A stretch of DNA of 64,000 nucleotides, taken from an uncultured Candidatus Saccharibacteria bacterium (GTDB lineage: Bacteria > Patescibacteriota > Minisyncoccia > UBA6257 > WO2-44-18). The notes under the pieces are model-generated. The model searched no databases and was not told the origin of the DNA. It saw only the letters and a list, made by a program, of their open reading frames with translations. The translations under genes and the position numbers were made by a program. The stretch lies in assembly GCA_964637575.1 (NCBI GenBank), contig CAZWVU010000003.1:1586-65585 (forward strand), read 5' to 3'. This document shows, piece after piece, positions 18,661 to 55,458 of this stretch (position 1 is the first letter of the stretch; the number at the start of each line of letters is the position of its first letter).

Positions 18661-18686
18661 CGCACTTCGTAGCTTTAGCGAAGAAG

Positions 18687-18990
18687 TGGAAGTGGCCGGA
18701 ATCGAACCGGCGTACAGGACAATTTCAAATCACCATCGACAAGCTTAAGGTTTGCTCCGGTTTGATTTAGTCCCGGTACGGTACGAAGCGGACCGACCGA
18801 GGACGAGCTTGAGATATAACACCGGTGATGGCCCGATCAAGCATCAGGCCGCCGATGGCTTAGGCAATTACGCGAAAGCTAACGCTAGGTTTTGATTAGC
18901 AATTATTAAGGTTTGCCGTAGTTTTACGAGTTGCGGCAGCTCGACTTGCAGTGGTTTGAAGTGTTGCCCAGTCGAGGCCTGTACACTCCC
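18687..18990 (-). ncRNA. ssrA: tmRNA (SsrA)
   Basis: On the minus strand the 5' end is GGGAGUG…. It pairs with the 3' end …CACUUCCA to form a tRNA-like acceptor with G3:U70. T-arm is GCCGGUUCGAUUCCGGC. An internal ORF, GCU AAU CAA AAC CUA GCG UUA GCU UUC GCG UAA (ANQNLALAFA*), sits after a UAAUU pre-resume context. smpB lies immediately upstream. Confidence 0.8.
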
Positions 18991-20403: not shown

Positions 20404-20859
20404 GTGAAAAACTTTCTGTGGCTCGCTGTGGGCACCTTGGGCATGTTCTTATTCGCCGGGCTTAGCGCTATTGTTGGCTACCATATGGGTAAGGAAGCGA
20501 AGGTTTCGCCGGCACCCGAAGCTGTCCAGCAGGACGAAGGGAAGCCAATTACCGGGACTGTCTGGTACAGCGAGCTGGACAAGGCCTGGAAGATCCAGAA
20601 CTTTGAGGATTTTAGCGGCAACCCGATCCGTCTTTCCAAGACCGAATCACTGGAGCGCCTGGTAGAAAGCAGAAAAAGATGGGAAGCTCGCCACGACCCC
20701 TGCTGCACATTTGTTGCCGGCTTGTACGTCCGGTATCTGAAGAGCAACGAAGAACCGAAGCCGGGAAGCCGCCAGAATTGTGAAATCATCAGAGTTGATT
20801 TTGTAAAAACTGATTTCTGCTTCCACTGTGAGCACACGGACAAAGCGCGCAGAGAATAG
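20404..20859 (+). CDS. Membrane-anchored hypothetical protein
   Basis: GTG start 8 nt after GGAGG; N-terminal TM; Cys-rich C-terminus. Terminator at 20868-20896. Confidence 0.4.
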   Translation: MKNFLWLAVGTLGMFLFAGLSAIVGYHMGKEAKVSPAPEAVQQDEGKPITGTVWYSELDKAWKIQNFEDFSGNPIRLSKTESLERLVESRKRWEARHDPCCTFVAGLYVRYLKSNEEPKPGSRQNCEIIRVDFVKTDFCFHCEHTDKARRE

Positions 20860-20867
20860 AGTTTTTA

Positions 20868-20896
20868 CAAAGCCCTACGAAAGTAGGGCTTTTTCA
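20868..20896 (+). terminator. Rho-independent terminator
   Basis: aaagccctacgaaagtagggcttttt. Confidence 0.7.
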
Positions 20897-20911
20897 TTTA
20901 TAATTAAGCCA

Positions 20912-22471
20912 ATGATTCAGAGGATTGAAGCAGTGATAAAAAAAGTAGTGGGCGAGAAGAAATTTCTGGTGACGGCTTCGGATAAGCCGGAATTCGGGCA
21001 TTATTCTACCAACGTCGCGTTTCAGATCCCGGGAAATACGGAGGATCTGGCCAAAAAAATTTTTGAAGCGGGCAAGGATCTTTTTGAAAAAGTGGAAGCC
21101 AAAGGAAAATTTATCAACTTCTGGCTTTCGCACAACGCGCTCGTGGAAGGCGTCGCGGAAGCGGTAAAACCGAAACTGAAAGCCGATAAAAAGCTGAAAA
21201 TAAACCTGGAGTTCGTCTCCGCCAACCCGACCGGACCGCTGACCATGGCCAACGGACGCGGCGGTTTTCTCGGTGACGCGCTGGCGAATGTCTTGGAAGC
21301 GGTCGGCCACAAGGTTACGCGTGAATACTATATAAATGACGCCGGGAATCAGGTACGCCTGCTCGGCGAGAGCGTGCTTGCCACGCTGGGAAAGACGGAA
21401 TCCAAAGAAGGGCATTACAAAGGAGAGTATGTAAAATCCCTCGCCAAAGAACTGGAGAAAAAAATAAAAAACAACGATGCGATGAAGGCGGGTCAACTGG
21501 CGGCGGCGGCTTTATTGAAAGAAATCCAGCAATCACTGAAAAAAGCCGGCATCAACTACGACGTCTGGTTTTCGGAGCAGAAAAATCTTCGGCAAAAAGA
21601 CGAGATCCAAAAAGTTCTGGACATGTTGGATACATCTGGCTTGGTGGAAAAGAAGGAGGGCGCGGTCTGGTTAAAAAGCCCCGACATTTCCGAGGATAAA
21701 GACCGTGTGCTGGTGAAGTCCGACGGTAATCCGACATATTTTCTCGCGGACACAGCGTATCATTACGACAAATTTATAAAACGGAAATTTGATCTCGTGA
21801 TAGATATCTGGGGCGCCGATCACCATGGCTATGTGGCGCGGCTGAAGAGCGGCGTGAAGGCAGTCGGCGTCGACCCGGGCCGCTTGAAGATTCTGATTAC
21901 CCAGCTGGTGCGGCTCACGGAGAACGGCCAGGAGGTGAAGATGTCCAAGCGGACGGGAACATTCGTGACGATGGATGAACTGATTGAAGAGGTCGGCTCT
22001 GACGCCGCGCGGTTCTTCTTCCTGATGCACGCGCCGGAAACGCATATGGATTTTGATCTGGCGCTCGCGAAAGAGAAGTCGCAGAAGAATCCGGTCTACT
22101 ACGCGCAGTACGCGTATGTGCGATGTGGCAGCATAATTACCAAGGCTCTAAATTTGAAATTTAAAATTAAAAATTTAAAATTGAGTTCGGATTGGGACTT
22201 GCTCAAGGCGGAGAGCGAGCTTCAGCTCATGCGCGAGCTGGTGAAGCTGCCGGATCTCATCTGGCAGACGGCGCAGGATTATCAGGTGAGCCGCCTTGCG
22301 CGCTACGCACTGGAAGTTGCGCGCGGACTCAACAACTTCTATGAAAAAGAGCGGGTGATCATTGACGATAAAGAACTCATGAGTGCGCGGCTCGGCCTCG
22401 TGGCCGCGACACGGGAAGTCCTCGCCAAAGTTTTGGATCTGCTGGGACTTTCCAAGCCAGAGCGGATGTAA
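20912..22471 (+). CDS. argS: Arginyl-tRNA synthetase
   Basis: Class I aaRS with ArgRS-specific anticodon-binding C-terminus (…YAQYAYVRCGSII…). Contains a ~33 nt AT-rich in-frame insert at 22150-22183 (LNLKFKIKNLKL). Confidence 0.9.
   Translation: MIQRIEAVIKKVVGEKKFLVTASDKPEFGHYSTNVAFQIPGNTEDLAKKIFEAGKDLFEKVEAKGKFINFWLSHNALVEGVAEAVKPKLKADKKLKINLEFVSANPTGPLTMANGRGGFLGDALANVLEAVGHKVTREYYINDAGNQVRLLGESVLATLGKTESKEGHYKGEYVKSLAKELEKKIKNNDAMKAGQLAAAALLKEIQQSLKKAGINYDVWFSEQKNLRQKDEIQKVLDMLDTSGLVEKKEGAVWLKSPDISEDKDRVLVKSDGNPTYFLADTAYHYDKFIKRKFDLVIDIWGADHHGYVARLKSGVKAVGVDPGRLKILITQLVRLTENGQEVKMSKRTGTFVTMDELIEEVGSDAARFFFLMHAPETHMDFDLALAKEKSQKNPVYYAQYAYVRCGSIITKALNLKFKIKNLKLSSDWDLLKAESELQLMRELVKLPDLIWQTAQDYQVSRLARYALEVARGLNNFYEKERVIIDDKELMSARLGLVAATREVLAKVLDLLGLSKPERM
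22150..22183 (+). repeat. AT-rich short repeat element (in-frame within argS)
   Basis: aaatttgaaatttaaaattaaaaatttaaaatt. A near-identical 20-mer aaatttaaaattaaaaattt recurs in tsaD; related copies sit at 7826-7856, 28936-29040 and 45509-45612. Confidence 0.6.
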
Positions 22472-23168: not shown

Positions 23169-23975
23169 TCAGCGTTTCAATCGGAGCATCATTCCGATGC
23201 CGATGGCGTCGCGGTTCACGCCCGCTACTTCGTAGTAGTCCACCGAGATGAAGCCGGCGACGAAATCGGTGAAGTTGTAGATGAACTCCCCCGAGACGCC
23301 ACAACGATGGTGGATGTGCCCATATTGGATATACGGCTTAAGCTCAAAGCCGAAATCATAGATCCCGCCCACGATCGGAAACGCGGTCATCGCGAAGGCG
23401 TTCTCCTCACCGGGACCGTAGGTGGACTTTTCCAGGATCGGCGCCCGGTTGCTGGAAAACCAGCAGGGCTCGAAAGAGGCTCGGATCCAGCAGCGCTGAT
23501 CGAAGTCGATCTTCGGCAAGTCGAATCTCGCGAGCAGCCAGTTCTGATCGTGGCCATAGTACTTGGCGGCATTTACGTCGATGTTGTGCCAGCTGTGATG
23601 GCCATACCCCACGCTGATCCATTCCACCGGCGTCTCATAGCGGGCCTCACCCATCAGGCCGATCCGCGAGATCCATTGATTCTCGCCGATCCAGGCGTAG
23701 GGTTCCACGTCCAAAGTGATACCCCAGAAGAGGTTACTCCGGACGATCAGATCCATCTGCTCGCCGGCCACGTGGCTGTAGCCGCTGTAATCATCCAGCA
23801 TCCGGTTGGGGATGGTGCTCTGGACGAAATATTCGCCGCGCACGTCGACGGAAGCGGTGAAATTTTCCCGGTTCTTGTCCGTGGGATAATCATCCACGAA
23901 CACCTGGGTCTGGGCCATGGCCGTGAGCGGCATTACAAGGAAGCAGGCCAGCACAATCACATAGCGCATAGGCAT
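23169..23975 (-). CDS. Secreted hypothetical protein, aromatic-rich
   Basis: Signal peptide ends …LTAMAQTQ; Trp/Tyr-rich body. No recognised domain. Confidence 0.5.
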   Translation of the reverse strand: MPMRYVIVLACFLVMPLTAMAQTQVFVDDYPTDKNRENFTASVDVRGEYFVQSTIPNRMLDDYSGYSHVAGEQMDLIVRSNLFWGITLDVEPYAWIGENQWISRIGLMGEARYETPVEWISVGYGHHSWHNIDVNAAKYYGHDQNWLLARFDLPKIDFDQRCWIRASFEPCWFSSNRAPILEKSTYGPGEENAFAMTAFPIVGGIYDFGFELKPYIQYGHIHHRCGVSGEFIYNFTDFVAGFISVDYYEVAGVNRDAIGIGMMLRLKR

Positions 23976-24073: not shown

Positions 24074-27000
24074 ATGTTGAAAGGGCTCAAGCAGTTCAAT
24101 CTTCCTGAACTTGAGGAAAAGGTGCTGAAATTCTGGAAAGACCACAATATTTTCGGGAAGTCGCTCGAGCTTCGCGGAAAAGCGAAGCCTTTCCGGTTTT
24201 TTGAAGGGCCTCCGACCGCCAACGGCCGTCCGGGCCTCCATCATGTGCTCGCCCGGGCCTTCAAAGATATCATCTGCCGTTATAAGCAGATGAAGGGTTT
24301 TTTCGTGCTCCGGCGCGCCGGTTGGGACACGCACGGATTGCCGGTGGAAATTGAGGTGGAAAAAAAGCTCGGGATCAAACACAAGCAGGAAATTGAAAAA
24401 TTCGGCATCGCGGAATTCAACGCCCAGGCGAAAATGTCCGTCTGGACGTACAAAAGCGACTGGGAAAAACTTACCGAACGCATCGGCTTCTGGCTCGACT
24501 TCGATCATCCCTACATTACCTATGACAACAAATACATTGAATCGCTCTGGTGGGTGTTTTCGGAAATCGACAAACGCGGCCTGCTGAACAAGCTTCACAA
24601 AATCGTGCCGTGGTGCCCGCGCTGCCAGACGGCGCTTTCCAATCACGAACTCGGCCAGCCCGGCGCGTACCGGACCGCCAAAGACCCGTCGGTCTATGTG
24701 AAATTCCGGCTTAAGGGAAAGTCCGCCAAAGGCGGATCGGCCTCCGGTGGAAAAAAGGAACATGAATATCTGCTGGTCTGGACGACGACGCCCTGGACCC
24801 TGCCCGCGAATGTCGCGGTGGCAGTGAATCCCGGCCTCACCTATACCAAATATAAAGTGGGCGACGAATTTTACTGGAGCTATCATACCCCGCCGGTCCA
24901 CGCCGGAAAGGACGGGCGCAAGGAGGAGATGGAAGTAGTGGAAAAACTTTCCGGGAAAAAACTGGTGGGCGAGCAGTATGAGCCCCTCTATCCGAATGAG
25001 GGTGCTCACGAGGTGCTTGGCGCGGGCTTTGTTTCCACCGAAGAAGGGACGGGACTGGTGCACATCGCGCCGGCGTACGGCGAAGACGATCTGCGGGTTG
25101 CCGGCAAGGGGCCGGTGCCGGTTACCATTAACGACGAGGGGAAGATGCTCAAAGGATTTCCAGGCGCCGGGAAATTCATCAAGCAGGCCGACGATGATAT
25201 TATTGCCGATCTGGAAGCGCGCGGGTTTTTATACTCCAAGAGCACCATCGAACACGAATATCCGTTTTGCTGGCGCTGTTCCACGCCGCTTATTTATTTC
25301 GCGCGCAAATCCTGGTTCATCGAGATCAGTAAGCTCAACAAGGAAATGCTGGAAGCGAACCAGAAGATCAACTGGATTCCCGAACATATCAAAGAGGGGC
25401 GTTTCGGCGAGTGGCTGAAAGATCCGAAAGACTGGTCCATTGCCCGTAACCGCTATTGGGGAACGCCGTTGCCGATCTGGGAGTGCGAAAAAAATCAGGA
25501 GCACCGGCTGTTTGTCGGTTCGCTCGAGGACCTGGATACGCACGCGTATAACCGCAACCGGTATTTTGTCGCCCGGCACTGCGAGGGGGAGCATAACGTA
25601 GCGGGCGTGCTTGCGTCCGGTCCGGAAAAAAACGGTCACGGCGCCAGACTGACGGAAAAAGGAACGGTGCAGGCGGAGAAGATCGCCATGGCGCTGAAAA
25701 AACCGGGCATCGACGTCATTTATTCCTCGCCGCTCAAGCGGGCGGTGGAAACCGCGAAGATTATTTCCAAAGCGACCGGCGCGCCGGTAAAAACAGACAA
25801 GCGTCTCAGTGAAGTCGAATTTGGCACGTTTAACGGAAGTCCGGTCGGAAAATACTGGGAATTTTTCGCGAATGACGCCGAGCGGTTCGTCAAAGCTCCT
25901 CCCGGAGGCGAGAATCTTAGCGATGTAAAAAAGCGGATGATCGAATTCTGGAAGGAAATTGACTCTGAAAACAGCGGAAAGAATATTCTGATCGTCAGCC
26001 ACGGCGATCCGATCTGGGTGATGGAGGGGGCAATGAGCGGCCTGAATAATCAGGAGATTGAAAAAGCCCCATATCTTAAGGTGGGCGAATACCGGGAAAC
26101 CGAATATCACAACTGGCCATTTTCCCAGGAGGGAGCGCTGGATATCCACCGGCCGTTCGTCGACGCGGTAATTTTGAAATGTCCGGAATGCGGCGAAAAA
26201 ATGCGGAGAATCAAGGAGGTAGCCGACGTCTGGTTCGACTCGGGCGCCATGCCGTTCGCCCAGTGGCACTATCCTTTCGAAAATAAAAAGCTGATCGATT
26301 CCGGCGCGCAGTTTCCGGCCGATTACATCGCCGAAGGAATGGATCAGACGCGTGGCTGGTTCTACACCCTTCTTGCCGTGTCCGTCCTGCTGGAACGCGG
26401 GTTGGCGTACCGCAACGTGATTTCGTTCGGATTGTTGCTGGATAAGAACGGGCAGAAGATGTCCAAATCAAAAGGTAACGTGGTGGACCCCTGGGATGTG
26501 ATTAAAAAATACGGCGCCGACGCGGTGCGCTGGTATTTCTATACCGTGAACGCGCCGGGTGAATATAAAAAATTTGACGAGCTCGATCTCGGCAAAACGC
26601 TCCGCAAAGTCTTTCTTCTCGCGTACAACTCGTTTGCGTTTTATCAGTTAAACAGCGACGCGAAAGACAAGCCGATCGCGGTATTGGACGAGTGGATTCT
26701 CGCCAGAACCCATCAGACAATAGAGGGGACCACCGCCAGATTGGAGCACTACGACGTCGGCGGCGCGGCCAAGCTCATCGAAGAGCTGGTGGATGACTGT
26801 TCCCGGTGGTACATCCGCCGGTCCCGGAAAAACGTATCGCCAAAAACCCTTGCGCTGGTACTGGGAGAGATTGCCAAATTAATGGCTCCCTTCGCGCCGT
26901 TTTTCAGCGAGGGACTCTATAAGTCGCTGACGGCCGACCCGAAGGCATCCGTTCACCTTGCCGACTGGCCGAAAGCCGACAAAAAGAAGATTAATAAAAA

Positions 27001-27499
27001 AATGCTCGAAGCCATGGCGGAAGTGCGCCGCGTTGCCAGCCTTGGTCTTTCCGAACGCGAAAAAGCGGGCATCAAGGTGCGCCAGCCGCTGGCCGCGTTA
27101 AAAGTAAAAAGTAAAAAGTTAAAAATTGCCGACAAGGAACTTCTGGAAATCCTGAAGGATGAAGTAAACGTAAAAGAGGTGGTTTTTGACCCGAAGATCC
27201 AGGGCGAGGTGGAGCTGGATACGAACATCACCGCCGAATTGAAAAATGAAGGAATCCTCCGCGATCTTGCCCGGACCATTCAGGGACTCCGCCATGACGC
27301 AAAATATCAGCCCAAGGACGCCATCGCGCTATTGCTTGATCTTCCCCCCGAGCTTCTGAAGATAATCGAAGTGCATGAGTCCACGCTTAAGAATATGGTG
27401 CATGCGAAGCAGGTAATATACCGCCGCGAAAAATTCGATGCGGAACTTTCAACCAAGCTGGACGATGCGGATATCTGGGTTGCGGTAAGAAAGGCCTAG
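24074..27499 (+). CDS. ileS: Isoleucyl-tRNA synthetase with inserted histidine-phosphatase (PGM-family) domain
   Basis: Class I motifs are present (P.TANGRPGLHHVL as HIGH-like; KMSKS at ~26460). A ~195 aa insert at ~25540-26130 carries RHCEGEHN, SSPLKRAVETA and IVSHGDPI. Confidence 0.9.
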   Translation: MLKGLKQFNLPELEEKVLKFWKDHNIFGKSLELRGKAKPFRFFEGPPTANGRPGLHHVLARAFKDIICRYKQMKGFFVLRRAGWDTHGLPVEIEVEKKLGIKHKQEIEKFGIAEFNAQAKMSVWTYKSDWEKLTERIGFWLDFDHPYITYDNKYIESLWWVFSEIDKRGLLNKLHKIVPWCPRCQTALSNHELGQPGAYRTAKDPSVYVKFRLKGKSAKGGSASGGKKEHEYLLVWTTTPWTLPANVAVAVNPGLTYTKYKVGDEFYWSYHTPPVHAGKDGRKEEMEVVEKLSGKKLVGEQYEPLYPNEGAHEVLGAGFVSTEEGTGLVHIAPAYGEDDLRVAGKGPVPVTINDEGKMLKGFPGAGKFIKQADDDIIADLEARGFLYSKSTIEHEYPFCWRCSTPLIYFARKSWFIEISKLNKEMLEANQKINWIPEHIKEGRFGEWLKDPKDWSIARNRYWGTPLPIWECEKNQEHRLFVGSLEDLDTHAYNRNRYFVARHCEGEHNVAGVLASGPEKNGHGARLTEKGTVQAEKIAMALKKPGIDVIYSSPLKRAVETAKIISKATGAPVKTDKRLSEVEFGTFNGSPVGKYWEFFANDAERFVKAPPGGENLSDVKKRMIEFWKEIDSENSGKNILIVSHGDPIWVMEGAMSGLNNQEIEKAPYLKVGEYRETEYHNWPFSQEGALDIHRPFVDAVILKCPECGEKMRRIKEVADVWFDSGAMPFAQWHYPFENKKLIDSGAQFPADYIAEGMDQTRGWFYTLLAVSVLLERGLAYRNVISFGLLLDKNGQKMSKSKGNVVDPWDVIKKYGADAVRWYFYTVNAPGEYKKFDELDLGKTLRKVFLLAYNSFAFYQLNSDAKDKPIAVLDEWILARTHQTIEGTTARLEHYDVGGAAKLIEELVDDCSRWYIRRSRKNVSPKTLALVLGEIAKLMAPFAPFFSEGLYKSLTADPKASVHLADWPKADKKKINKKMLEAMAEVRRVASLGLSEREKAGIKVRQPLAALKVKSKKLKIADKELLEILKDEVNVKEVVFDPKIQGEVELDTNITAELKNEGILRDLARTIQGLRHDAKYQPKDAIALLLDLPPELLKIIEVHESTLKNMVHAKQVIYRREKFDAELSTKLDDADIWVAVRKA

Positions 27500-27918: not shown

Positions 27919-28932
27919 TCAGGATAAACCGATTTTCTTTTTGACCGCCAGCATTTTTTTCTTGGCGATCTCATGGGCTTTTTTGGAGCCGGCAGCCAGC
28001 ATAGTTTTAACGGCTGTCATTTTCAGCTTCGCCTTTCGGGCGCGGAAAGGTTCACAATATTCAATGACCACTTCGGCGAGACGCTTCTTGAAATCCGCGT
28101 AACCTTTGCCGGAAAATTCCGCTTCCACCTCGGGAATAGTCAGTCCGGAGAGCTCGGAGTAGATCATCATCAGATTGGATACCGCAGCCTTATTCTGCGG
28201 ATCAAACTTCACTCCGCTGCCGGAGTCGGTAACCGCCGTTCGGATTTTCTTTTCAATTTCTTCGGGCGAATCACTAAGAAACAGGCATCCCGCCGGCCGC
28301 GATTTGGACATCTTTTTCGCCGGATCATCGAGCGACATTACGCGGGGGAGATTGGTGAGTAATTCCTTCGGTTCGGCGAACATTGGGCCGAATTTGGAAT
28401 TGAATTTGCGCGCCAGCGTGCGGACGAGCTCAAGATGCTGAAGCTGATCATGGCCGACCGGTACGAATTTCGCGTCAAACATCAACACGTCAGCAGCCAT
28501 CAATACCGGGTAGGCGAACAGGCCGACATTAATATTTTCCTTCTGATCGCCGGACTTATCTTTGAACTGCGTCATGCGGCTCAACTCTCCCATTGGAGTG
28601 ATGGTCTCCAGAATCCAGGCGAGTTCCGGGGCGTGATGGACGACGGATTGCTGGAAAATGACGGATTTTTTCGGATCCAGGCCGGCGGAGAGATAGCTCG
28701 CGGCCAAATCCAGAATCTGGGCCGACTTAATGGATGGATTCCAGTCGGAGACTGGTCCGCCTCCGGCGGAAAAATCCTCGGTCAGTGAGTGATAATCAGC
28801 GATGAAAAAGTAGCACTGGTATTTGCCGGAATTTTGGAGCGCGACGAAATTCTTGAGCGCGCCGAGATAGTTGCCGAGATGGAGCGGGCCAGTGGGTTGA
28901 ATGCCGGATATCAGGATAGGCTTAGAAGACAT
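27919..28932 (-). CDS. trpS: Tryptophanyl-tRNA synthetase
   Basis: GIQPTGPLHLGNYLG (HIGH region) and KMSKS motif. Confidence 0.9.
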   Translation of the reverse strand: MSSKPILISGIQPTGPLHLGNYLGALKNFVALQNSGKYQCYFFIADYHSLTEDFSAGGGPVSDWNPSIKSAQILDLAASYLSAGLDPKKSVIFQQSVVHHAPELAWILETITPMGELSRMTQFKDKSGDQKENINVGLFAYPVLMAADVLMFDAKFVPVGHDQLQHLELVRTLARKFNSKFGPMFAEPKELLTNLPRVMSLDDPAKKMSKSRPAGCLFLSDSPEEIEKKIRTAVTDSGSGVKFDPQNKAAVSNLMMIYSELSGLTIPEVEAEFSGKGYADFKKRLAEVVIEYCEPFRARKAKLKMTAVKTMLAAGSKKAHEIAKKKMLAVKKKIGLS

Positions 28933-29044: not shown

Positions 29045-30844
29045 CTATATCTCTATGATCACGGGCAGGATCATCGGCCGGCGTTTGGTTTTGCTGTAGA
29101 GCAGATTGCCGATCTGATCGCGGAGCAGAGTTTTGAGGTAGTCGGTTTCCATGCCGCTCTTGTCGGTCGGCACGCGGCCCACCAATCCGCGGATCTTCCG
29201 GCGGATTTCATCGAGCAGTTCCTGGTGTTCTTTGAGATAGATGAATCCCCGGGAAATGATATCCGGGTTCTTGAGGACGCGGGCATTGGTTCTGTCGAGC
29301 GTCAGGATGATCACGATCATGCCCTCCTGGGCGAGTGTGCGGCGGTCGCGCAGCACCACTTCCTCGACGTCGCCGACGCCGAGACCGTCCACCATCACGT
29401 AATACGACGGGACTTCCTCCTGGGTAATTTTGAAGTCGTCCTTGGTAAGCAGGGCCACCTGTCCGTTGTCCATCATCATGCTGTGTTCCCGGGGGATGCC
29501 GGCTTCCTGCGCGAGGTTGGTGGTAATTTTCCGAAAGAAATAGTAGCCGTGCACCGGCACGATATAGCGTGGCTTCACCAATTTAAAGACGAGCTTCAGG
29601 TCTTCCGCGTGGCAGTGGCCGGAGCTGTGAATGTCGAGGAATTTCGAGTTGTAGAGCTGATCCACCTGGCGGGCGATGTTGTCCTGCAGGGATTGAACGC
29701 TCCGTTCATTGCCCGGCACCACCGAAGAGGAAAAGATTACCATATCGGTCTGCTTGAGGGTGACAACGCGGTGCTCGCCGTTGACGATGCGCATCAGCCC
29801 GGCAGTCGGCTCGCCCTGCGAACCGGTGGTGAGAATCATCACCTTGTCGTCTTTGTGACTGTTGATTTCTTCAATGGGAATGATCGTGCCCTTTTTCGGT
29901 TTGATGTAACCGAGATTCTGGGCGATCTGAAGATTATCTTTCATCGAGCGGCCGTTGAGCGCCACTTTCCGTCCGATTTTTTCGGCAATATAAATAATTT
30001 CACCGAGACGGGAAAGCAGGGAGGCGAAGGTGGCCACGATAATCCGGCCCTTCGCGTTCTTGAAGAGTTTCTCCAGATTTTCTTCCACCACCTTTTCCGA
30101 AACGCCATGGCCTTCGCGGATGGAGTTGGTGCTGTCGATGAAGGCGGTATGAATGTTCATGTCGCCGAGCTTCTCGAAGATTTTCAGGCCGGCTTCGGAA
30201 GGTTTTCCTTCTCTGGTGATGTCGAGCCGGAAGTCGCCGAAGTGCACCATATTGCCGACCGGCGTGTTCAGCACGAAGCCGAGGCCGTCCGGAATGGTGT
30301 GGGCGATATCGAAAAATTCCGCGTGGAAATTTTCCGAGATGCGGACTTTATCGCCGTGCTTCACTACCTGGAATTTCAGCTTCGGAAGATTGGGAAATTC
30401 GGCGAAGCGGCGCTCAATGATCGCTTTGGTGAGCGCGGCGGTGTAGATCGTCGGATTGCCGAGCTTTTCAATAATATAAGGCAGCGCGTGGATGTGATCA
30501 TAGTGCCCGTGGGTAAAGATGATGCCGGCGACATTTTTCTTGCGCTGTTCGAGATAGGTGACGTTGGGAATAATGTAGTCCACGCCCGGCGTTTCTTCCT
30601 CCGGGAACTGGATGCCGACGTCCACGACGACAATTTCGTTTTTATATTCGAAGAATGAGCAGTTGCGCCCTATTTCTTCCAGGCCGCCGAGCGGCACAAA
30701 GCGGACCGTTTCCTGATCGTACGTTTTTGTGACTGGATTCTCGGCCGGCCGGGTCTTCGAATGTTCCGTGGGGCGGGCATGCCGGGGACCGCCGCTATGC
30801 GGCGGGCGCGGGGCGCCGGTCCGTGGTCTGAAATTTCTTTCCAT
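29045..30844 (-). CDS. rnj: Ribonuclease J (beta-lactamase/beta-CASP)
   Basis: HGHYDH metallo-beta-lactamase motif, beta-CASP region and C-terminal domain; Pro/Arg-rich N-terminal extension. Confidence 0.9.
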   Translation of the reverse strand: MERNFRPRTGAPRPPHSGGPRHARPTEHSKTRPAENPVTKTYDQETVRFVPLGGLEEIGRNCSFFEYKNEIVVVDVGIQFPEEETPGVDYIIPNVTYLEQRKKNVAGIIFTHGHYDHIHALPYIIEKLGNPTIYTAALTKAIIERRFAEFPNLPKLKFQVVKHGDKVRISENFHAEFFDIAHTIPDGLGFVLNTPVGNMVHFGDFRLDITREGKPSEAGLKIFEKLGDMNIHTAFIDSTNSIREGHGVSEKVVEENLEKLFKNAKGRIIVATFASLLSRLGEIIYIAEKIGRKVALNGRSMKDNLQIAQNLGYIKPKKGTIIPIEEINSHKDDKVMILTTGSQGEPTAGLMRIVNGEHRVVTLKQTDMVIFSSSVVPGNERSVQSLQDNIARQVDQLYNSKFLDIHSSGHCHAEDLKLVFKLVKPRYIVPVHGYYFFRKITTNLAQEAGIPREHSMMMDNGQVALLTKDDFKITQEEVPSYYVMVDGLGVGDVEEVVLRDRRTLAQEGMIVIILTLDRTNARVLKNPDIISRGFIYLKEHQELLDEIRRKIRGLVGRVPTDKSGMETDYLKTLLRDQIGNLLYSKTKRRPMILPVIIEI

Positions 30845-31296: not shown

Positions 31297-32313
31297 CTAG
31301 GGAGACGTGTGGTAATCCTGATTCACTTTATTATAGATAAGGCTCGAAAGGTCGCTGATCGTGCCGGCCAGGTCGGTAAAATTCTGGCCTTTTGTCATAA
31401 TACACAACAGATAAGGATGGTTGGGGTAATAGACAATGCCGCAATCATGAAGCTCGCGGAAAGAGACCGCTCCGGTCTGGTCATCATAGACCGTCCGTTC
31501 CCCGAATTTGTCGGCAAGCTCTGTCCCTTTCGGCAAACCGTTTAAAATACCCTGGGGAAAATCCGGCGAGCTCAATAATTCCATGGCCTTTTCGGAGAAT
31601 TCCCGGTTGAGATAGGTGGAGTTATAAAGCAGGCGGAAGAAAAAGCCGTATTGCTTGGGGGAAAGAAAGTCCACAACGTTGTTGTTCAGCCCCGGGAAGT
31701 TGATGCCGAGATCCGTATACACTTCCCGCAGCGTGCGGGCATCAATGGATTCATGGAGAAGGCGGGTGGCATTGTTGTCGGAATAGACGATCATCCGGCG
31801 CACGAGTTCTTCGCCGCTATAAAAGTGGCCCGCTTCGATAGCCTCGAGCGGCTTTATGCTCTCGGCCTTGTTGTCGTCAAAACTGCCGTCATAGAAAAAC
31901 TGTTTGGTCAGCAGCTCCGGATGATCTTCCGCGAGGCGGAAATACGCGATCATGGTCGGCACCTTTAAAAGACTCGCGGGAGCGAACGTCTCATTTTCAT
32001 TGATGCCCATCCAGTGATCGACATTCAGGTCGCGGAAGTACACCGCGACATCGGAAGCCAGGCCACTTTCTTTTTTCTGATTGATCAGATCGGTGACTGC
32101 GGTTTCCAGCGGTTTGTACTGCTGGAACTCCACATTGCCCGTATTCCGGCAGAGCAGGACGGGATTGATATATTGATATTTTCCCGTTTCGCGAAGCGTC
32201 GCATCCTGCGCCAGAATCTGGGATCCGGGTTTTATCAGCCAGGCAAAAAGAAATCCCGCGCCGAGAAGGAGGAGCGTCGGAGTGAATCGTTTTATTGTGT
32301 GACGCTGCAACAT
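31297..32313 (-). CDS. Serine hydrolase, class A beta-lactamase-like
   Basis: SLLK (SxxK) and SDN motifs plus N-terminal TM/signal. The ORF-track start at 32382 overlaps a tRNA, so the start was trimmed to Met 32313. Confidence 0.6.
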   Translation of the reverse strand: MLQRHTIKRFTPTLLLLGAGFLFAWLIKPGSQILAQDATLRETGKYQYINPVLLCRNTGNVEFQQYKPLETAVTDLINQKKESGLASDVAVYFRDLNVDHWMGINENETFAPASLLKVPTMIAYFRLAEDHPELLTKQFFYDGSFDDNKAESIKPLEAIEAGHFYSGEELVRRMIVYSDNNATRLLHESIDARTLREVYTDLGINFPGLNNNVVDFLSPKQYGFFFRLLYNSTYLNREFSEKAMELLSSPDFPQGILNGLPKGTELADKFGERTVYDDQTGAVSFRELHDCGIVYYPNHPYLLCIMTKGQNFTDLAGTISDLSSLIYNKVNQDYHTSP

Positions 32314-32324
32314 GGGAAAGTTTG

Positions 32325-32396
32325 TGCCGACGGGAGGGATCGAACCTCCGACCCGACGCTTATGAAACGTCTGCTCTGCCACTGAGCTACGTCGGC
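32325..32396 (-). tRNA. tRNA-Met (anticodon CAT; elongator or Ile2-type)
   Basis: Standard cloverleaf GCCGACG…UUCAUAA…CGUCGGCA. Confidence 0.8.
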
Positions 32397-33331: not shown

Positions 33332-33409
33332 GGTTGCGGGGGCGGGATTTGAACCCGCGATCTACAGGTTATGGGCCTGTCGAGATAGACCAAGCTTCTC
33401 CACCCCGCC
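33332..33409 (-). tRNA. tRNA-fMet-like initiator tRNA (anticodon CAT)
   Basis: Strong similarity to E. coli initiator tRNA (GCGGGGUGGAG…UUCAAAUCC.GCCCCCGCAACC), with A11:U24 and a mismatched 1:72 pair. Confidence 0.8.
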
Positions 33410-55363: not shown

Positions 55364-55386
55364 CGCCTTAGTGCTGCATCTTAGTG

Positions 55387-55458
55387 TGGGTGCGCCTGGG
55401 ATCGAACCAGGGACCAGTCGTGTATAAGACGACCGCTCTGCCACTGAGCTACGCACCC
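55387..55458 (-). tRNA. tRNA-Ile (anticodon TAT/UAU)
   Basis: GGGUGCGUAGCUCAGUGGCAGAGC…GUCGU CUUAUAC ACGAC…; anticodon positions 34-36 = UAU. Confidence 0.75.

Follow-up and report, generated by a model that had tools for sequence, protein, structure and literature searches.

The window examined here is a 64,000-nucleotide stretch of contig CAZWVU010000003.1 (assembly GCA_964637575.1, positions 1,586 to 65,585, forward strand) from an uncultured Candidatus Saccharibacteria bacterium of the Patescibacteriota. Its ileS open reading frame (ORF) encodes an isoleucyl-tRNA synthetase (IleRS) that carries a histidine phosphatase domain between two conserved synthetase segments, and argS, the gene for arginyl-tRNA synthetase (ArgRS), lies upstream. 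The coordinates of these and other features are collected in Table 1.

Table 1. Features of the ileS locus and of the rest of the window (positions count from the first nucleotide of the window; aa, amino acid residues of the IleRS)
Feature	Position	Strand	Remarks
Translation/RNA cluster besides ileS	18686-18990; 20828-22471; 27919-28932; 29045-30844; 31297-32382	-; +; -; -; -	
argS (ArgRS)	20828-22471	+	upstream of ileS; Pfam Arg_tRNA_synt_N, tRNA-synt_1d, DALR_1
268-aa ORF	23169-23975	-	in the argS-ileS spacer
ileS ORF	24074-27499	+	1141 aa; type-2 IleRS (IleRS2) with nested phosphatase domain
IleRS N-terminal part	24074-25537	+	aa 1-488; first Rossmann half, CP1 editing domain, N-side half of second Zn knuckle (C471, N474); aligns with 8C8W 11-479
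Class I signature motif	24233-24244	+	aa 54-57; non-canonical, sequence GLHH
Gly/Ser/Lys-rich loop	24722-24751	+	aa 217-226; CP1 editing-domain region
Second Zn knuckle, two halves	25484-25495; 26180-26191	+; +	C471-x2-N474 (H477 nearby); C703-x2-C706
Inserted module	25538-26140	+	aa 489-689; complete His_Phos_1 domain and short linkers
His_Phos_1 Pfam core	25565-26071	+	aa 498-666
RHC motif	25574-25582	+	R501; H502, predicted phospho-accepting nucleophile; C503 in place of the usual Gly
R556 (SSPLKR)	25739-25741	+	second phosphate-binding arginine; kept in 77/78 fused homologues
E580 (RLSE)	25811-25813	+	predicted general acid/base; 74 E and 4 D among 78
H643 (SHG)	26000-26002	+	second catalytic histidine; invariant, 78/78
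IleRS C-terminal part	26141-27499	+	aa 690-1141; DIHRP, C-side half of Zn knuckle (C703, C706), WFDSG, KMSKS, anticodon-binding and C-terminal domains; aligns with 8C8W 484-847
KMSKS motif	26456-26470	+	aa 795-799; KMSKS-type motif in 78/78 fused homologues
tRNA-Met(CAT)	32324-32396		
tRNA-Met(CAT)	33332-33409		
tRNA-Ile, anticodon TAT (UAU)	55386-55458	-	

A type-2 IleRS with a nested histidine phosphatase

The ileS product is recognised as an IleRS by the NCBIfam model TIGR00392, which scores the whole protein at 852.2 bits against a cutoff of 621.4. Pfam places tRNA-synt_1 in two stretches that flank a His_Phos_1 domain, followed by Anticodon_1 (aa 872-1007) and DUF5915 (aa 1024-1140), the C-terminal organisation of a type-2 enzyme. 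The best solved relative is the IleRS2 of Priestia megaterium (8C8W, E=2.5e-226), which aligns with residues 11-492 and 687-1036 of the query and has about 4 residues of its own between the two blocks. An AlphaFold2 (AF2) model of the full-length protein was obtained at high confidence (predicted local distance difference test, pLDDT, 92.3; predicted template modelling score, pTM, 0.85), with linkers above 90 pLDDT, and its IleRS body superposed on 8C8V and 1ILE with template modelling (TM) scores (TMt) of 0.82 and 0.91, respectively. The closest structures were IleRS2 entries (8C8V, 8WND and 1ILE), and entries for type-1 enzymes (IleRS1) scored lower. A Gly/Ser/Lys-rich loop in the region of the editing domain, GKSAKGGSASGGKK, is the sole part of the full-length model with a pLDDT below 50.

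Conservation of residues was assessed in an alignment of 78 full-length fused proteins that are 35-79% identical to the window protein. The editing motif WTTTPWT (aa 236-242) is invariant in all 78, and the class I signature motif takes the form G/AxHH, as in the window, in about 52 and HxGH in about 21. The G/AXHH variant of this motif is known to be functional in IleRS2 and to give hyper-resistance to mupirocin (Brkic et al. 2023, PMC10485003). By homology, the window IleRS would charge tRNA(Ile) specifically with isoleucine, and no second ileS was found within the 64 kb.

The phosphatase was equally clear. His_Phos_1 (PF00300) matched the whole protein with E=5.7e-36 (124.5 bits, cutoff 21.7) and the insert searched alone with E=1.8e-37 (129.3 bits). 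The distance between the motifs 'WG.P.P.W' and 'D.HRP', which bracket the insert, is 21-34 aa in 13 insert-less relatives, 199-246 aa in 235 fused proteins and 220 aa in the window protein. Insert length ranges from 189 to 217 aa across the 78 homologues, and the net gain over an insert-less IleRS is about 190 aa. The content of guanine plus cytosine (GC) over the insert (0.52-0.56) is the same as in the flanks and is flat at the junctions. A preliminary description of this DNA, made from its letters, had placed a histidine phosphatase domain between conserved IleRS segments at 25540-26130, where some 30-40 aa would normally sit. The strong His_Phos_1 match and the split tRNA-synt_1 domain bear out this architecture, the insert lies within a few nucleotides of that location (Table 1), and the normal spacing was judged about right. 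Every motif that it had listed is present, both within the insert (RHCEGEHN at aa 501, nucleotide 25574; SSPLKRAVETA at aa 551; IVSHGDPI at aa 640) and in the flanking synthetase (PIWECEKN at aa 467; DIHRPFVD at aa 690). We conclude, with near certainty, that the window protein is a housekeeping type-2 IleRS with its synthetic and editing sites intact, into which a complete branch-1 histidine phosphatase of ~190 aa has been inserted in frame.

The phosphatase enters the synthetase at the tip of the loop that joins the halves of the second zinc knuckle; this point is flanked by PIWEC and DIHRP and precedes the active-site strand DVWFDSG by about 20 residues. In terms of the Thermus thermophilus enzyme, the loop is probably a CP3-like region. 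The naming of CP3, one of the connective peptides (CP), follows the nomenclature of PMC11685878. The zinc knuckle itself is partly degenerate in the window protein; among the homologues many retain CxxC...CxxC, and some have lost all four cysteines.

Other candidates for the protein and its insert were rejected. The models for the acquired mupirocin-resistance enzymes MupA and MupB (NF000257/8) scored 742 and 751 bits against a cutoff of 1900, and the model for an IleRS with an added GNAT acetyltransferase domain (ileS_w_GNAT, NF040702) scored 280.7 bits against 1999. Neither an intein nor a mobile element was recognised, His_Phos_1 being the sole profile match within the insert. The reading as a frameshifted or chimeric gene was discarded because one uninterrupted ORF spans the whole protein.

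The fusion recurs across Patescibacteria

All of the best 120 full-length homologues (54-100% identity, 1119-1219 aa) contain PF00300 together with the IleRS domains. They were drawn from NCBI, ENA, JGI and Logan assemblies, on contigs of up to 436 kb, and they include one identical protein and many proteins at 54-79% identity that show the same architecture in independent assemblies. A profile spanning the junctions, searched against 1.84 billion representatives at 50% identity, retrieved 624 proteins at E<=1e-30; of the best 150 matches, almost all aligned end to end in one stretch. The fusion is also found in about 50 GTDB species-representative genomes, among them the complete 1.17-Mb Patescibacteria genome CP129476.1; the genome names include Liptonbacteria, Colwellbacteria, Harrisonbacteria, Yanofskybacteria, Jorgensenbacteria, Minisyncoccota, Paceibacteria and Magasanikbacteria. 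Thus, the fusion is conserved within a large clade, and because the same architecture occurs in many independent assemblies, well past what chance would give, we regard it as genuine and not as a chimeric join, which had been a concern of the preliminary description. Fused members have been public since 2015 (KKW47148.1; UniProt A0A1G2CK72 and A0A1G1Z6H8) under the names 'Isoleucine--tRNA ligase', 'class I tRNA ligase family protein' and 'hypothetical protein'.

Several fused or free-standing loci bear labels from outside Patescibacteria (L018, L047, L054, L059, L069 and P0001; Gammaproteobacteria, Acidobacteriaceae, Bdellovibrionales, a Thermoprotei archaeon and Sedimentisphaerales). These may be mis-binned contigs or may reflect real spread beyond the group.

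The insert resembles small-molecule phosphatases

The insert belongs to the branch-1 histidine phosphatases by its PF00300 score, its catalytic pentad (R501-H502-R556-E580-H643) and its alpha/beta fold of the phosphoglycerate mutase type. An AF2 model of the insert alone (pLDDT 92, pTM 0.90) was matched by Foldseek, with a probability of 1.00, to PspA (4IJ6), PhoE (1H2E), GpgP (6S2Q/4QIH), HFP (9MMH) and CobC as its best relatives (TM ~0.77, 22-28% identity). When TM scores were normalised to the target, small phosphatases reached 0.73-0.78 versus 0.58-0.68 for mutases. The best sequence matches in the PDB were the phosphoserine phosphatase PspA (4IJ5, E=1.4e-16), CobC and PhoE.

No equivalog model of NCBIfam claimed the insert. 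Its best match there was the model NF038349 for the archaeal type of cofactor-dependent phosphoglycerate mutase (dPGM), at 97.6 bits and below the cutoff of 225; the other dPGM models were also missed (TIGR01258, 46.5 versus 81.7; PRK14115-14120, 27-45 versus 305-421). PspA (NF045917) was rejected at 90.6 bits versus 350, although 4IJ5 is the best PDB sequence match, as was the alpha-ribazole phosphatase CobC (TIGR03162, 88.2 versus 162.9; NF011580, 63.4 versus 250), and the insert fell far under the cutoffs for GpmB and SixA. Thus, the assignment to the PGM family in the preliminary description holds at the level of the superfamily and fails if read as a mutase, in that the insert lies below every mutase, PspA and CobC cutoff and resembles the small phosphatases. 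Judged by these comparisons of sequence and predicted fold, the insert is a member of the superfamily that resembles its small-molecule phosphatases of ~200 aa and stands outside every characterised orthologous group. Because it scores below every equivalog cutoff, no substrate of PhoE, PspA, GpgP, CobC or HFP can be assumed for it.

The solved small phosphatases, namely PhoE/YhfR (1H2E, 1EBB), PspA (4IJ5/6), GpgP Rv2419c (4QIH, 6S2Q), CobC (3HJG, 6E4B) and the riboflavin-pathway HFP (9MMH), are like the insert in their size of ~200 aa, their fold and all catalytic residues. They differ in being free-standing enzymes with known small substrates, whereas the insert is nested in IleRS and its relatives are nested in or encoded beside IleRS. 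A further parallel is the bifunctional RNase H/CobC-type acid phosphatase (Mycobacterium Rv2228c type, NF005567), which likewise joins a CobC/PhoE-like phosphatase to an enzyme that acts on nucleic acids. Against the phosphatase half of that model the insert scores 89 bits, far below the model's cutoff of 326; moreover, that fusion is end to end and its partner enzyme is a different one.

Other insertion sites and multiple copies

Insertion sites were assigned by four hidden Markov model (HMM) landmarks. By these landmarks 339 domains lie at the site used in the window protein (the CP site). Five lie at the junction with the anticodon-binding domain (the domain of L057 and the second domains of P0287, P0321, P0341 and P0382), three just past WFDSG (in P0341, P0382 and P0342) and one upstream of the CP site (in P0241). 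L057:2435-6193, labelled Peribacteria, encodes a 1252-aa IleRS in which the short CP loop is intact; here the phosphatase (aa 720-876) follows the KMSKS region and precedes the anticodon-binding domain, and its RHG motif is replaced by THT. Copy number also varies. Two tandem copies occupy the CP site in P0306, P0325, P0352 and P0354, and P0241 has four stretches matched by Pfam, or three by a stricter HMM count. A neighbour-joining tree of 89 phosphatase domains had deep branches that were star-like and unsupported, and free and inserted forms interleaved in it, so no count of fusion events was drawn from it.

A partial JGI metagenome protein of 1066 aa (P0281) is an IleRS relative with a phosphatase at aa 680-854 and a GNAT acetyltransferase domain at aa 921-1065. 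Within its editing-domain region lies a domain resembling REP-associated tyrosine transposases (aa 326-472; NF047646, 81 bits against a cutoff of 80).

Catalytic residues are conserved at all sites

In the alignment of 78 fused proteins, R501, H502, G530, S552, E613 and H643 of the insert are invariant and R621 is kept in 76. The third residue of the RHG motif is more variable (56 G, 9 C, 5 A, 5 T, 2 S and 1 V) and is Cys in the window protein. The pentad (R-H-R-E/D-H) was tallied over all domain copies gathered. It is retained by 309 of the 312 CP-site copies that are complete, by all 13 copies from multi-domain proteins, by all three at the second alternative site, past WFDSG, by four of five at the anticodon junction, and by the products of all 28 free-standing genes. 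By column, the phosphatase core and the editing domain are about equally conserved (0.52 and 0.54, respectively). On this evidence the phosphatase and the IleRS both look functional.

A free-standing counterpart is encoded between argS and ileS

The closest non-fused relatives of the insert are proteins of ~190 aa at 40-45% identity, members of a large Patescibacteria family that comprises at least 120 clusters. Seven of them were picked by phosphatase sequence alone and their loci looked up (P0037, P0099, P0042, P0062, P0095, P0039 and P0058). In all seven the free-standing gene lies directly upstream of an ileS that lacks the insert (949-972 aa in the complete cases) and whose start it overlaps by 4-32 nucleotides in some, and in six it lies directly downstream of argS. 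The genes form a conserved block, smpB(-) / argS - His_Phos - ileS - recO (L081-L092). The free-standing loci L052-L059 came from a genome scan, via alignment A4, with IleRS-motif patterns and so were not counted as independent evidence of linkage; in four divergent loci among them (L054, L056, L058 and L059) the gene is beside argS yet 1.3-3.3 kb from ileS.

The fused loci present the complement of this arrangement. No separate phosphatase gene was found in the window, and none of 50 fused loci had an extra free copy within flanks of up to 4 kb on each side. Upstream of ileS, argS is present in 24 of these 50 loci, with a gap of 12-89 nucleotides in six of the 24. Given this complementary distribution of the two forms, we see the inserted domain as the counterpart of the neighbouring gene. 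It is thus well supported that the insert is the same protein as that encoded by the free-standing gene between argS and ileS in related Patescibacteria, and that in the lineage of the window the phosphatase gene has in effect moved into ileS.

The two forms differ somewhat in charge. Free-standing phosphatases (e.g. P0037 and P0099; L081-L092) are strongly basic, with a median isoelectric point (pI) of 9.6 and a net charge of +10.5, and inserted copies are less so (median pI 8.9; 8.0 for the window insert), compared with 8.7-8.9 for the IleRS body. We found no fusion of the phosphatase to ArgRS at about 20 free-standing loci or among 120 listed homologues of P0037, the latter being weak evidence in that the search seems to favour proteins of query-like length.

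In the window, the spacer between argS and ileS, where relatives place the free-standing phosphatase gene, is filled by a 268-aa ORF on the opposite strand. Its product has a signal-peptide-like N-terminus and no Pfam match, and the local GC content is slightly higher (0.57).

Possible roles of the nested phosphatase

We put at about even odds (a probability of roughly 0.5) the reading that the domain is an autonomous small-molecule phosphomonoesterase of the PhoE/PspA/GpgP/CobC type, which is active by the mechanism of its family, arose by capture of the neighbouring gene and stays tethered to IleRS mainly for co-production. By that mechanism, H502 would attack a phosphomonoester to give a phospho-histidine intermediate, with the phosphate held by R501, R556 and H643, together with N508; E580 would serve as general acid/base, after which water would free the phosphate. 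A diffusible phosphomonoester is the probable substrate because all near relatives use such compounds and because the position within IleRS is not fixed. As for the origin of the fusion, an adjacent and co-oriented gene would offer an easy route into ileS by duplication and deletion, and permissive loops of IleRS would decide where insertions survive. The tether would then keep phosphatase and IleRS produced and held together and would not serve to channel an intermediate of aminoacylation. We prefer co-production to channelling because the IleRS of other lineages accommodates the domain in two or three further loops, and in 1-4 copies; this variation in site and copy number argues against tight channelling with the synthetic site. 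Hydrolysis of an adenylate or of NppN, or a regulatory role, as put forward in the preliminary description, would be further possible functions.

Several considerations weigh against this reading. That the alternative sites are spatially unrelated is judged from their position in the sequence. The synteny in seven of seven look-ups comes from one clade with one inherited gene block and does not represent seven independent events, so it reflects common descent and not necessarily function. Cys in place of Gly in the RHG motif of the window protein, a position that is Gly in just 56 of 78 homologues, could lower activity. The pTM of 0.85 and the linker pLDDT above 90 suggest a fixed orientation of the domain in proteins of the window type. 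Finally, repeated fusion to IleRS at several sites, with none seen to the equally adjacent ArgRS (itself weak evidence, as noted above), could point to selection for physical coupling.

The main alternative explanation, which we consider possible but distinctly less probable, is that the phosphatase is a dedicated partner of IleRS that acts on something IleRS handles, so that IleRS would have a third catalytic site. Targets could include a phosphate or pyrophosphate that blocks the 2'/3'-OH at the CCA terminus of tRNA(Ile), a nucleotide product or by-product, or a phosphorylated inhibitor directed at IleRS. The distribution of the gene, found beside ileS (7/7) or as a domain within IleRS in a complementary manner, is a Rosetta-stone pattern; however, adjacency alone supplies the simple duplication-deletion route described above. 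IleRS acquired the domain in three or four separate loops, in some cases as several copies, whereas no fusion was seen with ArgRS, and the main site precedes the WFDSG strand by some 20 residues while another follows it directly. Against this, the site is not fixed, with one at the start of the anticodon-binding domain, which is another structural domain, and copy number runs from 1 to 4. The full-length model is rigid, and the free-standing proteins have the strongly basic character that is frequent among proteins binding nucleic acids, but a basic pI is common in these genomes and is shared by the IleRS body itself. The clade shows other signs of pressure on IleRS, in the G/AXHH hyper-resistance motif and the GNAT domain of P0281; on the other side, the closest solved relatives of the insert all use small metabolites, and the four divergent free-standing loci keep the gene beside argS and away from ileS. 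None of the points in favour of coupling (IleRS as the exclusive host, two sites near the active-site strand, a rigid model and basic free proteins) is decisive. Rather improbable, in our view, is the more specific proposal that the phosphatase is an obligate IleRS partner working on the acceptor end of tRNA(Ile) or on an IleRS-bound nucleotide, for example by removing a phosphate or pyrophosphate that blocks aminoacylation or by destroying a phosphorylated IleRS inhibitor. If it were true, a third active site, a phosphohydrolytic one for tRNA repair or self-protection, would be seen for the first time in an aminoacyl-tRNA synthetase.

It is much less likely that the domain has ceased to be an enzyme and regulates IleRS as a module for structure, dimerisation or ligand sensing. 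The variable glycine of the RHG motif and the change of Arg to Thr in that motif of the L057 copy would fit such a role, and since members of this family are usually dimers or tetramers, copy numbers of 1, 2 and 4 would fit pseudo-oligomers. However, the pentad is kept in 99% of complete copies, every duplicated copy included, which is unexpected for a pseudo-enzyme.

We give about as little weight to the idea that IleRS merely hosts the organism's cofactor-dependent phosphoglycerate mutase of glycolysis. Glycolysis is patchy in Patescibacteria, the top NCBIfam match of the insert is NF038349, and the catalytic residues of the mutases are shared with the superfamily core. Yet NF038349, TIGR01258 and every gpmA equivalog stay under their cutoffs, the target-normalised Foldseek TM score falls for mutases, and the domain, at ~190 aa, has neither the additional cap segment nor the C-terminal tail found in dPGMs. 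Metabolic reconstructions based on domains may count this hidden domain as a phosphoglycerate mutase.

That an artefact of assembly or gene calling joined a phosphatase gene to ileS can be dismissed: the source is a metagenome-type assembly and a phosphatase gene does adjoin ileS in relatives, but the ORF runs without interruption through IleRS sequence on either side of the insert, there is no break in composition, and the same junctions are found in hundreds of sequences from independent assemblies, at identities as low as 35%.

Relation to known synthetases and significance

The window protein shares with the IleRS2 of P. megaterium (8C8U/V/W) and T. thermophilus (1ILE) the Rossmann fold and the CP1 editing, anticodon-binding and type-2 C-terminal domains, as well as the G/AXHH variant described for IleRS2. 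It differs in that solved and described IleRS2 have a short loop where the window protein has an enzyme domain of 190 aa, and none of the solved IleRS structures compared has anything at the position of the insert. Nested domains are likewise tolerated in catalytic and anticodon surface loops of other class Ia synthetases, as in the CP1 editing domain, the leucine-specific domain of leucyl-tRNA synthetase (LeuRS) and the INS subdomain of IleRS2 (bioRxiv 10.64898/2026.02.03.703510); these serve tRNA binding or editing and, unlike the insert, are not independent enzymes of another superfamily. A precedent for a bacterial IleRS with an extra domain that modifies small molecules is ileS_w_GNAT, and P0281 combines His_Phos with GNAT. 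However, the added domain of that family is a different one, and neither the window protein (281 bits) nor P0281 (218 bits) reaches its cutoff of 1999.

The literature searched contained no description of, or experiment on, a phosphatase within IleRS. Two IleRS-wide studies, that of Brkic et al. 2023 (PMC10485003) and a 2026 preprint in which 96,219 IleRS sequences were annotated with HMMs for the canonical domains, do not mention phosphatase, Patescibacteria or GNAT domains. The view in the preliminary description that this architecture is not known among characterised IleRS thus agrees with both the solved structures and the literature. The enzyme and the domain are each known; it is their combination, and the relationship to a neighbouring gene, that is undescribed, and the combination is visible in databases through public sequences and automatic Pfam annotation.

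Few enzymes are as conserved as the aminoacyl-tRNA synthetases, and domains added to them usually point to added functions such as editing, tRNA binding or signalling. Here, over a large branch of the candidate phyla radiation, an essential synthetase contains a complete enzyme from an unrelated superfamily that retains its catalytic residues. If the two were functionally linked, this would represent a new step in isoleucine charging, tRNA maintenance or antibiotic defence of ultra-small symbiotic bacteria. If they are joined for co-production only, the fusion would be a natural example of the capture of a neighbouring gene by nested insertion in streamlined genomes, one that maps the permissive loops of IleRS.

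Wider context of the window

The ileS gene lies in a cluster of genes for translation and RNA metabolism that also includes a tmRNA (tag ANQNLALAFA), ArgRS, tryptophanyl-tRNA synthetase (TrpRS) and RNase J, with an ORF of the beta-lactamase family beside a tRNA-Met gene. Farther downstream, a tRNA-Ile gene has the anticodon TAT (UAU), an uncommon way for a bacterium to read AUA. The window also contains two tRNA-Met(CAT) genes, either of which could in principle be tRNA-Ile2 or the initiator.

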